Virus record (IMG/VR): IMGVR_UViG_2585427729_000001
Location: 1 to 5,061 of that record
Strand: one strand, 5' to 3'
Source of the DNA: a virus
Taxonomy: Duplodnaviria > Heunggongvirae > Uroviricota > Caudoviricetes
Length of the DNA stretch: 5,061 nucleotides
This document shows positions 77 through 4,929 of this stretch, piece after piece. The notes beneath the pieces were generated by a model that saw only the letters and a list, made by a program, of their open reading frames with translations, ran no database searches and had not been told where the DNA came from. The position numbers and the translations under genes were made by a program. Position 1 is the first letter of the stretch; every line of letters starts with the position of its first letter.

Positions 77-700
77 CTAACGTGTGATCGCATTCAAAAT
101 GTTGTCTGCGATTGACTCTTCCTTGTGGCATTGCACAACCAGAGCGTCATACAGCGGCTTAACAGTGCGTGACCAGGTGGGTTGGGTAAGGTTTGGGATT
201 AGCATCGTCACAGCGCGATATGCGGCGCTTGCTGGCATTCTTGAATAACCGACGCCTTTACATCTTCCGCACTCTTTCTCAGCAACTATCCCCCACTGCT
301 CTGTTTTGGCTATATCAACCGCACGGCCTGTACCGTGGCAATCTCTGCATCTTGCGCCCGGCGTCGCGGCACTACGGCAATAATCCGCATAAGCGAATGT
401 TGCGAGCACTTGCAGTACCTTTGCCTTAGTATTTCCTTCAAGCTTTGCCACGCCACGGTATTTCCCCGATACCTTGTGTGCAAATTGCATCAGATAGTTG
501 ATAGCCTTTTGTTTGTCGTTCTGGCTGAGTTCGTGCTTACCGCAGAATGCAGCCATTCCGAATCCGGCTTGTGATTGCGCCATCCCCATAGCAGCCATCA
601 CATCAGTACCGGAAAGAGAGTCAGAAGCCGTGGCCCGTGGTGAGTCGCTCATCATCGGGCTTTTTGGCGAATGAAATTTAGCTACGCTTTCGAGTCTCAT
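77..700 (-). CDS. Q: Late-gene antitermination protein Q, lambda-type, 207 aa
   Basis: The track ORF 77..733 has an N-terminal extension; the likely true start is the ATG at 700 (MRLESVAKFHSPKSP...), preceded by GAGGGGAAG. The protein matches lambda Q nearly residue for residue as I recall it, including the Cys cluster CRDCHGTG...CGRCKGVG (zinc finger). The stop lies directly upstream of the pR'-like promoter. Confidence 0.93.
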   Translation of the reverse strand: MRLESVAKFHSPKSPMMSDSPRATASDSLSGTDVMAAMGMAQSQAGFGMAAFCGKHELSQNDKQKAINYLMQFAHKVSGKYRGVAKLEGNTKAKVLQVLATFAYADYCRSAATPGARCRDCHGTGRAVDIAKTEQWGIVAEKECGRCKGVGYSRMPASAAYRAVTMLIPNLTQPTWSRTVKPLYDALVVQCHKEESIADNILNAITR

Positions 701-711
701 CGTCTTCCCCT

Positions 712-846
712 CTATCCTTTGCAATGACACCACACTTCAAACATTCGTTTCACAACCTCACGACAGTAGAAGCCGTAAGCATCGCGGGTAAGATCGTAGC
801 GATTGCCATAACGCTGGCGCATATATCGTTCGAATGCTTTGTTCAT
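712..846 (-). CDS. Small hypothetical protein, 44 aa, YlcG-like by position (between rusA and Q); not in the supplied ORF track
   Basis: Hand translation of the minus strand from ATG at 846..844 gives MNKAFERYMRQRYGNRYDLTRDAYGFYCREVVKRMFEVWCHCKG, ending at TAG 714..712. The start overlaps the rusA stop as ATGA, GGAGAA lies a few nt upstream, and the stop is 11 nt before the Q start. Basic, with a C-x12-C-x-C cluster. The position matches the small ylcG ORF between rusA and Q in DLP12-type prophages. Confidence 0.6.
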   Translation of the reverse strand: MNKAFERYMRQRYGNRYDLTRDAYGFYCREVVKRMFEVWCHCKG

Positions 847-1205
847 GTGTTCTCCAGTTCGGTGATTTTTATTCCAAGCCTTCCGCCTGGTACTTTCACA
901 CCACGAATTACGCGAATGTCATCGAATTGCTCGTCGTCTTCCGCAAATCCGGCGTGGATAAGGGAGTCGAGTAAACCTTTCAGGATGTTGTCGAGGTCGC
1001 GGCGGCGGGAGTCTGGAACGTCTGCGATGACTTTGATACGGAGTCGTGATTTGGTGAAAATGTCTAACTTGAGTTGGCGAATGATTTGCTGAACGTCTTT
1101 TCGGTATTTCTGGCCTTTATCGCTGATGTAGTATTGGCCTCCCCGTCTTCGCCAGTAGGTATTCACCGACGGCGGGTATGGAAGCACAAACTGATATTCG
1201 TTCAT
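843..1205 (-). CDS. rusA: RusA-family Holliday junction resolvase (crossover junction endodeoxyribonuclease), 120 aa
   Basis: Protein MNEYQFVLPYPPSVNTYWRRRGG...DVPDSRRRDLDNILKGLLD...GGRLGIKITELENT shares the hallmark RusA motifs with E. coli RusA as recalled (LP-PPS-N-Y-R, PD-RRRDLDN acidic catalytic region, GGRL...ITE) and the same 120-aa length. The start overlaps the ybcO-like stop as ATGA; GGAGGGG lies upstream. Confidence 0.92.
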   Translation of the reverse strand: MNEYQFVLPYPPSVNTYWRRRGGQYYISDKGQKYRKDVQQIIRQLKLDIFTKSRLRIKVIADVPDSRRRDLDNILKGLLDSLIHAGFAEDDEQFDDIRVIRGVKVPGGRLGIKITELENT

Positions 1206-1492
1206 GGCTTAATCTTCCCCTCCTTCAGCAGTATCGCCTGCGTCCTGATCACGCCTTCGAGGTGGTAAAGTCTGGCGTCTTTGTTGTCGAGGTTATGGGT
1301 GCGTCGGTCGATTTCATCGTGACACGCGCTACAAGCCCATGCGCCGATCAGGTCGTCAGGCTTCATTCCCGTTCCGCAAATTCCAGCCATCCGGTAATGT
1401 GCCAGAACTGTAGTTTCAGGGTTGCCATTGCATACGCCGTAAATACGTACCTGGCATTCTCTGCCGCGAGCTTCTTTGCGTAGGTTAGCCAT
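1202..1492 (-). CDS. ybcO: YbcO-like DUF1364-family protein, putative Zn-binding nuclease, 96 aa
   Basis: Protein MANLRKEARGRECQVRIYGVCNGNPETTVLAH...CSACHDEIDRR... has the same length and Cys/His pattern as the DLP12 prophage YbcO that sits immediately upstream of rusA. RBS GGGGAGG lies about 8 nt upstream; TAATG overlap with the preceding gene. Confidence 0.85.
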   Translation of the reverse strand: MANLRKEARGRECQVRIYGVCNGNPETTVLAHYRMAGICGTGMKPDDLIGAWACSACHDEIDRRTHNLDNKDARLYHLEGVIRTQAILLKEGKIKP

Positions 1493-2214
1493 TAAGCAGC
1501 CTCCCCTGTTACTTTCAGCATTCCGTTATCGAGCAGCTTTCTGGTCAGCCACTGTTGACCACACCCGGTGATTTTTGTGGTGAACGATATCTGTATTCCG
1601 TGATTTGTGTTGACCGCTGTTTCTTTCACTGTGAAATAGCCGCGATCCATATATTCCTGCATTGGCACATTGCGCCGGGAACCTGAAGCAATAAGGATTT
1701 TGTGATCGCGCATCCACGCAAACAGTTTGTTTGGACCAATTCCAACAACCTTTGCAAAGTTTCCAATCAAAATTCCGCTGGCCTCGCCAACGCGATCGGC
1801 AAACTCAACTTTAGGTGCGGCAATTGCTAGCTGGTTTTCCAGTTGCATTTTCTGCTCAGCAAGGTCAGCAGCAAGGCGCAACGCTTCTGGTAGCGTTTTT
1901 GGGATATTAACCGCAGCTTCTTCAAGCTCTCGCCAACGGTCAACAAGGCGAGCCGTGAATTCCGGCGACAACTGGGCTACAACGACAATACTGTCTCGCT
2001 TTCCTTGTTCGCCTTCGAATACATACACACAAAAACTTTGATTTAAGCCTAACCCATTGATTCTTCCACAATCCTCAATTTGAGGAAGCCGGATAACACC
2101 ATTTTTAGCCAGCGTTTCGATGGTACGTTTCACATTGTCATGACGCTTACCAACCAACTCAGCGATTTCAATGCTTGTCATTTTTATGGCATTGCCATTT
2201 ATTAACTCATTCAT
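1492..2214 (-). CDS. Phage regulatory protein of the Rha/antirepressor family (N-terminal Rha-like DNA-binding domain plus C-terminal KilA-C/Ant-like domain); Roi-like, 240 aa
   Basis: The N-terminus MNELINGNAIKMTSIEIAELVGKRHDNVKRTIETL is the characteristic Rha-domain signature. The C-terminal half (...FADRVGEASGILIGNFAKVVGIGPNKLFAWMRDHKIL...) resembles antirepressor KilA-C domains. RBS GAGGAAG precedes the ATG; the start overlaps the upstream small ORF by 8 nt. Confidence 0.85.
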   Translation of the reverse strand: MNELINGNAIKMTSIEIAELVGKRHDNVKRTIETLAKNGVIRLPQIEDCGRINGLGLNQSFCVYVFEGEQGKRDSIVVVAQLSPEFTARLVDRWRELEEAAVNIPKTLPEALRLAADLAEQKMQLENQLAIAAPKVEFADRVGEASGILIGNFAKVVGIGPNKLFAWMRDHKILIASGSRRNVPMQEYMDRGYFTVKETAVNTNHGIQISFTTKITGCGQQWLTRKLLDNGMLKVTGEAA

Positions 2215-2383
2215 CGTCTTCTTCCTCGTACATTGAGCTATTCGGATCGCTCATCAGCTCTGCGCAGCAATCGGAGCACACGTGAACTTCCAGCACATGC
2301 AGCTTCTGACCGCAGTTAGCGCACGTTAAAGCTCGCTCGACGCTTTCTTTCTGGTATTGAAGGGTTTGGGATGGGCTAAGCAT
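2207..2383 (-). CDS. ninF: NinF-like small Cys-rich protein, 58 aa; not in the supplied ORF track
   Basis: Hand translation from ATG 2383..2381 gives [58 protein letters not shown], ending at TGA 2209..2207. It has a CxxC...CxxCC putative zinc-binding motif and an acidic tail. GGAGA lies upstream. Size and position (after ninE/ninX, as in the P22 order ninE-ninX-ninF) fit NinF; I also recall lambda NinF as very similar. Confidence 0.7.
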   Translation of the reverse strand: MLSPSQTLQYQKESVERALTCANCGQKLHVLEVHVCSDCCAELMSDPNSSMYEEEDDE

Positions 2384-2733
2384 TATTGGATTCTCCGCAT
2401 CATGAGAAAGACAATCATGGCGGCACGGAGTGGATTGTCATATGCGACACCAACATTCGGTCCGGCATCATCAAACAAGTCCCTTGCGTTGTCTGTGGCG
2501 CACGGCATTGAGGGATTGTCTAAAATTATGCTGATGTTGTTTTCAGTGATAATCGGCCATGCGTCTGCTGGGTTATTGCAGTAGTCGTACCATCGATAAT
2601 TGCCATTTGCTTCATTGCCAACAGACCGTCCATCTGCGTTGTGCGGATAACCTAATGGTTTTGCCCCAACTATCGCTTTAAATACTCGCTTGTTAATTTC
2701 AAAATCACTTAACTGTGAATAATCCATTGTCAT
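2383..2733 (-). CDS. Hypothetical phage protein, about 116 aa, NinX-like by synteny; function unknown
   Basis: ORF in the track as 2383..2769. The probable start is ATG 2733 (ATGA overlap with the ninE stop) or ATG 2727 (better spacing from GAGG). Protein [60 protein letters not shown]... has no motif I can assign to a known enzymatic function. It sits between ninE and the NinF-like gene, where P22-type phages carry ninX. Confidence 0.75.
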
Positions 2734-2906
2734 TTCCTCGCACGATGTCTTAGCCACCGGATATCCCACAGGTGAGCCGTGTAATTGAAGGTTTTTACGT
2801 CAGATTCTTTTGGGATTGGCTTGCGTTTATTTCTGGAGCGTTTCGTTGGAAGGTATTTGCAGTTTTCGCAGATGATGTCGGTGATACTTCGTCGTTGTCG
2901 CCTCAT
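2730..2906 (-). CDS. ninE: NinE, 58 aa, function unknown
   Basis: The track ORF 2730..2996 is over-extended. The true start is likely ATG 2906 ([58 protein letters not shown]), with AGGAGGG 5 nt upstream and an ATGA overlap with the methyltransferase stop. The sequence closely matches lambda NinE as recalled. Confidence 0.85.
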
Positions 2907-3430
2907 GCCGCCCTCCTGACGCCCTGCCCGATCGCCATCAATGCCGCTTTGGATACGGTAGTAAACATCCGTCGAGGACTGATGAACGGTCGCCAAATCA
3001 GCAGCATGGAGCCTTTGCTGTTTCCCTTCTTCTCCAGCCCTGTCGATGGTTCGATAAAATTAATCCGTCCATCAGTGATAATGCGAACTTCGTCGACACT
3101 CTCCAGAGCCTTGCTGAACCATCCGACAGACATATCCTCTGGCACAAGCATCACTACCGTCTGTCGTTGTTGTATGCACTGCTCAGCGGCTTTTTCCACC
3201 CACGGCCTGATATTGCTGTACGGTGGGTTATTCCAGATTGCACCGTGGCTTATCCACTCAGAATTTAGCGCGTCGTCAGCCTCAGTTAGCCAGTGAGCGC
3301 ACAGAGCATTTTTGTCGCTCGCTGCCGAATCCAGCCAGAATCCAAACTCAATATCCAGTGCATCAAAAAGCCAGAGCGGCGTTTGCCAGCAGTCCTTGTC
3401 GTGTGATGGCGTATTTGATTTGATAGTCAT
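2903..3430 (-). CDS. dam: Phage Dam-family DNA N6-adenine methyltransferase, small orphan methyltransferase of about 175 aa
   Basis: Track ORF 2903..3490; the probable start is ATG 3430 ([26 protein letters not shown]...), overlapping the ninB stop as ATGA. It contains the NPPY catalytic motif (IWNNPPYSN) and the N-terminal D-x-W-x-TP signature typical of the phage Dam family. No restriction endonuclease gene is adjacent. Confidence 0.88.
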
Positions 3431-3867
3431 GCAGCCCGATCTCCCCATCGCGCTTTCCATTCGAGAGCCAGTCGCGCTTCGTCTGACCACTTAACGCCAC
3501 GCTCTGTACCGAATGCCTGTATAAGCTCTAATAGCTCCGCAAATTCGCTTACACGCATCCTGCTGGTTGACTGGCCTATTACCACAAAGCCATTCCCGGC
3601 AAGGTTAGGAACAACGTCCTGCTGCTTTAATGCTGCTGTAAAAACGCACTTCCAGCTTTCTGCATCCAGCCAGCGACCATGCCATTCAACCTGACGAGAG
3701 ACGTCACCAAGGCAAGCCCAAAGCTTTCGATTCTGGTCTAAGCTGCGGTTGCGTTCCTGAATGGTTACTACGATTGGTTTGGTTGGGTCTGGAAGAATTT
3801 GCTGTACCGCGTGAATAGCGTTTTGCTGATGTGCTGGAGATCGAATTTCAAAGGTTAGTTTTTTCAT
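3427..3867 (-). CDS. ninB: NinB (lambda Orf), recombination mediator, 146 aa
   Basis: The track ORF 3427..3885 starts at a TTG. The real start is probably ATG 3867 (MKKLTFEIRSPAHQQNAIHAVQQILPDPTKP...), with GGAGAGGGAAG upstream. It matches lambda NinB/Orf as recalled. Confidence 0.9.
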   Translation of the reverse strand: MKKLTFEIRSPAHQQNAIHAVQQILPDPTKPIVVTIQERNRSLDQNRKLWACLGDVSRQVEWHGRWLDAESWKCVFTAALKQQDVVPNLAGNGFVVIGQSTSRMRVSEFAELLELIQAFGTERGVKWSDEARLALEWKARWGDRAA

Positions 3868-3940: not shown

Positions 3941-4231
3941 TCATCTTTTAACTCCATATACCGCCAATACCCGTTTCATCGCGGCACTCTGGCGACACTC
4001 CTTAAAAATCAGGTTCGTGCTCACCTTTCCTTCCCGTTCTTCTCTGGTAGCGAACCGGTAATACACCGTTCGCCAGACCTTACCTTCGATAACCAGAAGA
4101 CCTGCCCGTGCCATTTTAGCCGCGGCCTGATTTATGCTGGTTACTGTTGCGCCTGTTAGCGCGGAAACGTCCTGTGCACAGAAGCTCTTATGCGTTCCGA
4201 GGTAATGAATAATTGCCTCTTTGCCCGTCAT
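3941..4231 (-). CDS. ren: Ren protein, 96 aa
   Basis: Protein MTGKEAIIHYLGTHKSFCAQDVSALTGATVTSINQAAAKMARAGLLVIEGKVWRTVYYRFATREEREGK... matches lambda Ren as recalled in length and sequence. ATGA overlap with the P stop. Confidence 0.9.
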   Translation of the reverse strand: MTGKEAIIHYLGTHKSFCAQDVSALTGATVTSINQAAAKMARAGLLVIEGKVWRTVYYRFATREEREGKVSTNLIFKECRQSAAMKRVLAVYGVKR

Positions 4232-4929
4232 ACACTTGCTCCTTTCAGTCCGAACTTAGCTTTAATTTCTGCGATCTTCGCCAGAGCCTGTGCTCGATTT
4301 AGAGGTCTGCCGCCCATGACAGGAAGTTGTTTTACTGGTTCAGGTATAGTCTCACCACAGTTAATTCGCGCTGTCATACAGGTCAGCTCATCGGCAGCCT
4401 TACGCCGTAATTCCGCGTCAGTCAGCGCATTGGCCCGCATGTTCTGGTACAGGTTGGTAACCAGCCAGTAGTGCGCGTTTGATTTCCACGGATAAGACTC
4501 TGCATCTGGATACAGGCCACGCTTCCGGCAATACTCGTAAACCATATCAACCAGCTCGCTGGCGTTTGGCAGTCCGGCAATAACAGATGCTTCTTCACGA
4601 CACCAGGCAACAAACTGCCCGGGTGATGGCAGGAATGGTCGATTCTGCCGACGGGCTACGCGCATTCCTGCGTTAACCTGTTCCATCGTGGTGATCCCGT
4701 TTTCCCGGAAAGCCAGAACCCACTGGCGGCGGATTTCGTTCAGTTCGTTCTGGTCACGGTTAGCCAGGCTCGCCGGGAAAGTTGCCAGTAACTGGCTGAA
4801 CACACCGTTGATGATCTGCGCTACCTGCTGTACCTGCGGCTTTTCGTCGTACTGTTCCGGCATGTTGTTGGCGATCCGACGCATCTGCTCACGGTCAAAG
4901 TTAACCATCTGTGCGGCGATGTTTTTCAT
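4228..4929 (-). CDS. P: Replication protein P (helicase loader), 233 aa
   Basis: Protein MKNIAAQMVNFDREQMRRIANNMPEQYDEKPQVQQVAQIINGVF... matches lambda P as recalled, full length 233 aa. The start overlaps the O stop as ATGA. Confidence 0.93.
   Translation of the reverse strand: MKNIAAQMVNFDREQMRRIANNMPEQYDEKPQVQQVAQIINGVFSQLLATFPASLANRDQNELNEIRRQWVLAFRENGITTMEQVNAGMRVARRQNRPFLPSPGQFVAWCREEASVIAGLPNASELVDMVYEYCRKRGLYPDAESYPWKSNAHYWLVTNLYQNMRANALTDAELRRKAADELTCMTARINCGETIPEPVKQLPVMGGRPLNRAQALAKIAEIKAKFGLKGASV

Follow-up and report, generated by a model that had tools for sequence, protein, structure and literature searches.

The ybcO gene and its junction nuclease neighbor in the nin region of a lambdoid Escherichia coli prophage

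We analyzed a 5,061-nucleotide (nt) stretch of viral DNA (called the window below), concentrating on positions 712 to 1492, which encode YbcO, RusA, and a small protein. One result worth keeping concerns ybcO, the gene for a predicted nuclease: the gene after it stays a junction nuclease gene even though the protein family of that nuclease changes. The rest is ordinary. That the genes are what they appear to be, and that they make up a known and unexceptional module, is nearly certain, and it is very probable that positions 712 to 1492 form the promoter-distal end of ninR, a segment of the early-right operon, in a lambdoid E. coli prophage. Both the module and the way it is annotated are already known, and the prediction that YbcO is a nuclease and its proximity to RusA have been published (PMC5714182, PMC4999995). 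Little follows for the window itself, an annotated module of the kind that is standard in the nin regions of lambdoid prophages. YbcO, however, is found widely among phages and its structure has been solved, and its near-constant pairing with structurally unrelated junction nucleases leads to a concrete hypothesis about the processing of recombination intermediates. A second result worth keeping is that the third gene is not related to ylcG, a correction that keeps a wrong "YlcG-like" annotation from spreading.

All the genes in the window are on the minus strand. In gene order, the features are as follows.

4228-4929, minus strand: P, preceded by the end of O.
3941-4231, minus strand: ren.
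3427-3867, minus strand: ninB.
2903-3430, minus strand: dam, encoding a Dam-type methyltransferase.
Between dam and ninX, minus strand: ninE.
2383-2727, minus strand: ninX.
2207-2383, minus strand: ninF.
1492-2214, minus strand: roi, encoding a Roi-type anti-repressor-like protein of 240 amino acids (aa) with Rha N-terminal and KilAC C-terminal domains.
1202-1492, minus strand: ybcO, 96 aa, PF07102 (DUF1364), a predicted Cys4 zinc (treble-clef) His-Me-finger/HNH-type nuclease.
843-1205, minus strand: rusA, encoding a Holliday-junction resolvase of 120 aa (PF05866, phrog_34).
712-846, minus strand: orf44, a 44-codon open reading frame (ORF) encoding a basic protein of 44 aa (phrog_3871) that is predicted to fold as a helix-loop-helix; its start codon and the rusA stop overlap.
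701-711, minus strand: spacer of 11 nt from the orf44 stop (TAG) to the Q ATG, read from the sequence.
77-700, minus strand: Q, encoding a lambda-type late-gene antiterminator of 207 aa (PF03589; "antitermination protein" in RefSeq).

The Roi-type protein matched PF03374 (E = 4.4e-32) and PF09669 (E = 6.6e-8) and fell into phrog_63, anti-repressor Ant; its gene is labeled roi in the annotation of HK97 and HK620.

An earlier note on this DNA described ybcO, rusA, and the small gene as chained by TAATG, ATGA, and ATGA and ending 11 nt before Q, and the sequence reads exactly so. At the junction of the roi stop and the ybcO ATG (...GCTTAATGGCT), 1 nt of TAATG is common to both genes. The ybcO stop and the rusA start (...GCCATGAAC) overlap by the 4 nt ATGA, as do the rusA stop and the orf44 start (...ACATGAAC). 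Between orf44 and Q (TAG-AGGGGAAGACG-ATG), the 11-nt spacer contains a G-rich, Shine-Dalgarno-like run (AGGGGA), and Q starts at 700. Of the 11 junctions that are complete within the window, 9 have stop/start overlaps of 1 to 8 nt; consequently, overlap is a weak and nonspecific argument for any special relationship among these three genes.

Over positions 650 to 1550 the DNA is 100% identical to that of prophages in E. coli O127:H6 E2348/69 and several other strains, in which these five genes are already annotated in RefSeq. Over its full length, the window is 99.9% identical to a prophage in strain 19KM2326N; phages E212, HK140, and HK97 match it in mosaic pieces at about 96% identity. A roi-ybcO-rusA block followed by ninH and Q is common to HK97, HK022, HK620, and many others. 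Because identical prophages are annotated and the block is shared in this way, we regard the window as a lambdoid nin region of the standard kind. No Rfam family matched anywhere in the window at E ≤ 1, and a scan of positions 1 to 2300 for promoters and terminators gave counts no higher than those in shuffled sequence.

The identifications of RusA and Q in the earlier note were borne out. RusA matched PF05866 with an E value of 6e-17 (62.8 bits; gathering cutoff, 22.8) and aligned over residues 1 to 119, without gaps, to the E. coli RusA chains 1q8r and 2h8c (E = 4e-27). The residues critical for catalysis or DNA binding by RusA are R69, D70, D72, N73, K76, and D90/D91 (PMC1636454); R69, D70, D72, N73, K76, D90, and D91 are all kept at the same positions in the ungapped alignment. 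Identity is 97% with HK97 gp67 and 43% with K-12 RusA; on the strength of this likeness to a characterized enzyme, the protein would be a dimer that cuts four-way junctions symmetrically. Q matched PF03589 (E = 1.2e-57; 192.5 bits; gathering cutoff, 26.7) and is 97.6% identical to HK97 Q. In the mechanical ORF list, Q begins farther upstream, with a GTG at 733; starting from the ATG at 700 yields the N terminus of a 207-aa lambda Q, and RefSeq uses this start.

The match of YbcO to PF07102 (E = 1.8e-44; 150.1 bits; gathering cutoff, 29.9) covered residues 3 to 92 of 96. YbcO is 71% identical to DLP12 YbcO, the structure of which is PDB 3g27, and 72% identical to orf96 of phage 82, and its fold is that of 3g27, the solved PF07102 member. 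In an alignment of 30 homologs with identities down to 44%, C13, C21, H32, G40, K44, D47, C54, C57, and H58 were invariant, and C39 varied. Thus, the assignment to YbcO/DUF1364 with conserved Cys and His residues holds, these residues being retained down to 44% identity. We predict that C13, C21, C54, and C57 are zinc ligands and that H32, D47, and H58 form the active site. The model places strands at residues 29 to 31 and 51 to 53 and a helix at residues 55 to 61, with D47 in place of the motif Asn. This modeled arrangement matches the core layout of the His-Me-finger enzymes, the invariant H32 and H58 falling on the positions of the beta-beta-alpha-metal motif, and a published superposition agrees with it. 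Kaur and Subramanian assigned 3g27 to the treble-clef zinc fingers, noted that one His of it can be superimposed on the catalytic His of His-Me nucleases, and found P1 Ref to be its best profile (FFAS) match (PMC4999995). Jablonska et al. placed DUF1364 and DUF968 together in His-Me group 7, listed RusA, Q, and antirepressor genes among the neighbors of DUF1364, and proposed a recombination role like that of NinG or Ref (PMC5714182). When we searched the PDB with a profile of the YbcO alignment, 3g27 was the sole match and Ref was not returned. NCBIfam contains no model for YbcO or orf44, and the searchable literature yielded no report of biochemical activity for any PF07102 protein.

We examined the neighbors of ybcO in a species-level set of 80 loci (one genome per species; YbcO identity of 65 to 100%), 77 of which were evaluable. 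RusA was downstream of YbcO at 63 of the 77 loci and directly adjacent at 60, mostly with the 4-nt ATGA overlap. Other nucleases took the downstream place at nine loci, namely VRR-NUC (6), DUF1064 (2), and a PDDEXK_15/Hjc-like protein (1); five loci had none. A junction nuclease of any kind was therefore downstream of YbcO at 72 of 77 loci. In contrast, the genes upstream of YbcO at the same loci fell into 33 unrelated clusters, the largest of which had 10 members. The linkage covers homologs down to about 60% identity and, in addition, a ybcO-rusA pair in Vibrio phage 1.039.O (41% identity), which is non-lambdoid and in which the pair is far from any Q gene. Curtis et al. reported domains of DUF968, the sister family of DUF1364, fused to RusA (PMC4118853), and a Ref-family HNH gene of Vibrio phage 1.115.B overlaps rusA just as ybcO does. 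Ref-like (PF16786) genes were followed by a recognizable RusA or VRR-NUC gene at 5 of 62 loci; their other neighbors were below threshold or had no Pfam match.

The earlier note had taken tight coupling to suggest that all three genes act in the same DNA-processing pathway. The part of this argument that rested on overlaps is weak, such overlaps being operon-wide, and the part concerning orf44 was not supported (see below); for YbcO the conclusion is supported by its conserved adjacency to a junction nuclease. Some of the evidence would also suit a possible, if somewhat unlikely, explanation, that YbcO is a positional passenger acting independently of RusA, for example in the degradation of host or competitor DNA or in counter-defense, with the adjacency being an inherited gene order of the mosaic nin region. 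Not only do overlaps join genes all along the operon with no specificity for these three, but RusA works without YbcO, since IS2 and IS10 insertions upstream of rusA activate its transcription and suppress ruv mutants (PMC1636454, PMC10956419), and in many phages, e.g., Acinetobacter phages, Stx2 phages, and SfIV, rusA has no annotated ybcO adjoining it. Furthermore, seven distant YbcO homologs (44 to 57% identity) had no recognizable resolvase downstream, although these were on short metagenomic contigs and the downstream genes had no Pfam family. A passenger would not be expected to keep its downstream partner as a functional class across RusA, VRR-NUC, DUF1064, and PDDEXK while its upstream neighbor is not kept, or to recur with rusA in a non-lambdoid Vibrio phage. 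As to a role in defense, no PADLOC defense model matched YbcO, nor did any match Roi, RusA, or orf44. We prefer a role for YbcO in the same pathway as RusA.

Both PHROG and RefSeq label YbcO "HNH endonuclease," a label that would also fit a selfish or homing endonuclease lodged beside rusA. Homing-type ORFs do invade this site: HNH_3/AP2 ORFs sit between ybcO and rusA at three loci (L014, L140, and L149). However, these true homing genes belong to another family and are sporadic, whereas ybcO keeps its position and its 4-nt overlap across many genera at 65 to 100% identity, and the YbcO family has hundreds of cluster representatives. With just 96 residues and no DNA-recognition module, YbcO is very unlikely to be a homing enzyme.

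Small phage HNH proteins can serve as terminase accessory factors, and YbcO might have been such a factor for cos cleavage and packaging, like HK97 gp74. We consider this extremely improbable. The ybcO gene precedes Q within the early nin region, a long way from the terminase genes, and its neighbors are recombination genes. HK97 itself carries a ybcO homolog in its nin region as gp66, and the terminase-linked HNH protein of that phage is gp74, which we take to be separate from gp66.

The third gene, orf44, matched phrog_3871 (E = 2.3e-30) and had no Pfam match even at E ≤ 10. We found 84 relatives of it in the databases, 44 to 49 aa in length and spread across the enterobacteria. Among 24 DNA versions the frame was open in all; variable sites at codon positions 1, 2, and 3 numbered 12, 8, and 37, and codon differences from the window copy were 287 synonymous and 118 nonsynonymous. 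Thus, orf44 is a real, conserved gene under purifying selection. Its invariant residues are F5, E6, R16, Y17, D18, L19, D22, G25, Y27, R29, V32, R34, M35, W39, and G44. The earlier note had called it a Cys/His-containing protein, and C28, C40, H41, and C42 are indeed present in the window copy; among homologs, however, C28 is replaced by S, A, or F, H41 by S, E, or Y, and both C40 and C42 by R. Because these residues vary, orf44 as a metal-binding partner is unsupported. An AF2 model gave a helix-loop-helix with a pLDDT of 87 and had no meaningful fold match.

The description "ylcG-like" did not survive comparison. Global identity between orf44 and YlcG was 17%, the two belong to different PHROGs (phrog_3871 versus phrog_2705), and the hhalign probability was 0.35%; against NinH (PF06322) it was 0.14%. 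With hhalign values below 1% for both, we rejected orf44 as a homolog of YlcG or NinH. All that orf44 and YlcG have in common is their position after rusA, the slot held by NinH in HK97 and by YlcG in DLP12. The occupant of this slot is not constant. Among 80 close relatives of the window ybcO it was NinH in 74 and orf44 in 3; at the species level it was YlcG in 14 and NinH in 8, and often there was no recognizable gene. Conversely, relatives of orf44 followed rusA in just 14 of 80 viral contigs, while in 64 of the 80 they were distant from any rusA and flanked by a DUF4222 gene and xis/int, where the leftward operon ends (BP-4795 and O157-type prophages are examples).

These distributions bear on the idea that YbcO, RusA, and the small protein are one obligate functional unit. 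The three genes are chained by overlapping codons, and the small gene of DLP12, ylcG, is cotranscribed with rusA (PMC12844172). An obligate unit of this kind is nevertheless highly improbable, given that the slot is filled by NinH, orf44, YlcG, or nothing recognizable and that orf44 is unrelated to YlcG and NinH, lacks conserved Cys/His residues, and mostly resides by xis/int. Because the slot varies and most orf44 relatives are by xis/int, we regard the third gene as an interchangeable accessory and not as a fixed member of a trio. orf44 is a real, separately mobile small gene, and it is probably an independent accessory gene outside the YbcO/RusA pathway.

The earlier note also held that RusA stands in for lambda Rap (NinG). 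This was supported: no ORF in the window matched PF05766 (NinG/Rap), and NinG was present at 0 of the 160 YbcO loci that we examined (about 4 kb on either side), whereas NinB was present at 105, NinE at 88, NinF at 80, and NinH at 83 of the same loci. The order in lambda is ninF-ninG-ninH-ninI-Q, and that in HK97 is ninF-roi-ybcO-rusA-ninH-Q, so that the place of lambda ninG (rap), between ninF and the small gene that precedes Q, is filled by the ybcO-rusA pair. According to the literature, orf is always upstream of either rap or rusA, and Rap, a His-Me-finger enzyme, both nicks D-loops and is able to resolve junctions. The absence of NinG from YbcO loci, the common slot, and this published alternation of rap and rusA all support replacement, and they allow it to be stated more sharply: the unit that replaces Rap is ybcO and rusA together, a His-Me-finger protein plus a resolvase. 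An hhalign comparison of the YbcO alignment with lambda NinG gave a probability of 0.09%, a weak test because NinG was a single sequence and not a profile.

We suggest the following mechanism. Transcription would start at pR under N antitermination and reach these genes at the tail of the early-right operon, and translation would proceed in series via their overlapping stop/start codons, as elsewhere in the operon. RusA would resolve four-way junctions that arise in the Red/NinB (Orf) pathway of the phage or the RecA pathway of the host. YbcO would most likely be a zinc-stabilized, metal-dependent nuclease with recombination intermediates as its targets, in the same pathway as RusA. It may resemble P1 Ref or lambda Rap in nicking or cutting D-loops or three-strand branches, and YbcO and RusA would then jointly cover the branch-cleaving functions that Rap alone supplies in lambda. 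Fold, motif, and gene linkage are what we observed for YbcO; from them we infer what it acts on and any joint action with RusA or a recombinase. A specific Ref- or Rap-like role is our best guess, and a tentative one. A wider proposal is that PF07102 proteins are dedicated to the upstream position of a recombination cassette with two nucleases, each as a Ref/Rap-like cutter, possibly guided by a recombinase, that is cotranslated with RusA, VRR-NUC, DUF1064, or PDDEXK proteins and splits the functions of Rap with them; in so specific a form we consider it doubtful.

Four known systems are closest to the window. P1 Ref, a RecA-dependent HNH nuclease (PF16786; PDB 3plw), has 186 residues, whereas YbcO has 96 and is without the Ref N-terminal region; YbcO had no Pfam match to PF16786. 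The lambda ninG (rap)-ninH-ninI-Q segment has the same place in the operon, from ninF to Q, and likewise encodes a branch-specific/Holliday-junction endonuclease, Rap also being a His-Me-finger protein. However, two small genes of the window stand in place of the single 204-aa enzyme of lambda, YbcO shows no detectable similarity to NinG in sequence, and the two arrangements are mutually exclusive.

The ybcO-rusA-ylcG-quuD genes of DLP12 and the orf96-rusA genes of phage 82 are in the same order as those of the window, with a PF07102 gene overlapping rusA, a small ORF, and an antiterminator. Alignment to these two elements, which the earlier note had proposed as a check, agreed for YbcO (71% and 72% identity) and, more distantly, for RusA (43%, K-12), but not for orf44, YlcG not being a homolog of it. 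DLP12 also differs in having an 82-type QuuD instead of a lambda Q and ninE instead of roi upstream.

HK97 (gp66-gp67), together with HK022 and HK620 (hkbD-rus), shares with the window the roi-ybcO-rusA block, a lambda-type Q, and the overlaps. Identities between HK97 and the window are 98% for YbcO, 97% for RusA, and 98% for Q. The difference lies in the slot after rusA: HK97 has NinH (62 aa), which overlaps both rusA and Q, whereas the window has the unrelated orf44 and an 11-nt spacer, an arrangement found in 3 of 80 close relatives.

The gene that follows ybcO, the predicted His-Me-finger nuclease gene, switches family and retains its functional class. In the Pseudomonas group and in some other genomes, ybcO is followed by a gene encoding a nuclease whose fold is not that of RusA. 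At the comparison loci (L-numbers) retrieved from other genomes and phages, the replacements of rusA after ybcO were as follows:

L046, L050, L057, L058, L071 and L075, VRR-NUC gene
L047 and L064, DUF1064 gene
L082 4822-5217, PDDEXK_15/Hjc-like gene

Elsewhere rusA is kept and another gene lies between it and ybcO. At three loci a homing-type HNH_3 gene of ~175 aa is found exactly at the ybcO/rusA boundary, where it retains the ATGA overlap (4-nt stop/start sharing) with ybcO:

L014 4285-4815, homing-type HNH endonuclease gene between ybcO and rusA; PF13392 HNH_3 and a weak AP2 match
L140 4285-4809, homing-type HNH endonuclease gene between ybcO and rusA; PF13392 HNH_3 and a weak AP2 match
L149, homing-type HNH endonuclease gene, with the ybcO stop at 1966 and rusA at 2488-2850; PF13392 HNH_3 and a weak AP2 match

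Insertions seem to recur at the ybcO-rusA junction. In Silvania hatchlandensis (L065 4285-4950), the two genes are separated by a NinI-type Ser/Thr phosphatase gene (PF00149), and ybcO-NinI-rusA is followed by ylcG and then a Q gene; this arrangement is a further mosaic variant of the region. The E. coli database protein P0091 (117 aa) matches both PF07102 and PF05866 in one sequence, most probably an artefact (frameshift or fusion) spanning the ATGA overlap.

Relatives of orf44, the 44-aa gene between rusA and Q, occur in other settings:

L167-L172 3001-3135, P0307, the commonest relative
L004 1652-1786, ORF3 of phage BP-4795

P0307 is indexed in ~13,000 blocks of the collection. In O157/Stx-type prophages it has a DUF4222 gene on one side and excisionase/integrase genes on the other, and the small gene therefore ends both early operons, in different phages. 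In Escherichia phage PhiR5_2, an 80-aa ORF (L005 2490-2732; phrog_17609) comes after ybcO-rusA-ninH, and its C-terminal 44 residues match the orf44 protein. Co-occurrence of NinH and the orf44 protein is therefore possible, and a longer form of that protein may exist.

In the window, the Q frame (minus strand) is open upstream of 700 as far as a GTG at 733, overlapping the end of orf44; consequently, a mechanical ORF call gives 218 aa versus the annotated 207 aa. A NinX gene (PF10765, a family named after phage P22 NinX) lies at 2383-2727 on the minus strand, flanked by ninE and ninF. The E2348/69 prophage and HK97, in which this region is otherwise nearly identical, lack it.

At L325 631-2020, a distantly related YbcO homolog (identity 53%) is encoded two genes downstream from a gene for a YqaJ-type recombination exonuclease, a further recombination setting with no recognisable resolvase. 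In Vibrio phage 1.115.B (L256 1727-2360), a 93-aa Ref-family nuclease gene (PF16786) overlaps rusA by 8 nt; its product matches phage P1 Ref (PDB 3plw) with an E value of 0.0017. This pair resembles the ybcO-rusA layout, but its nuclease belongs to a different His-Me-finger family.
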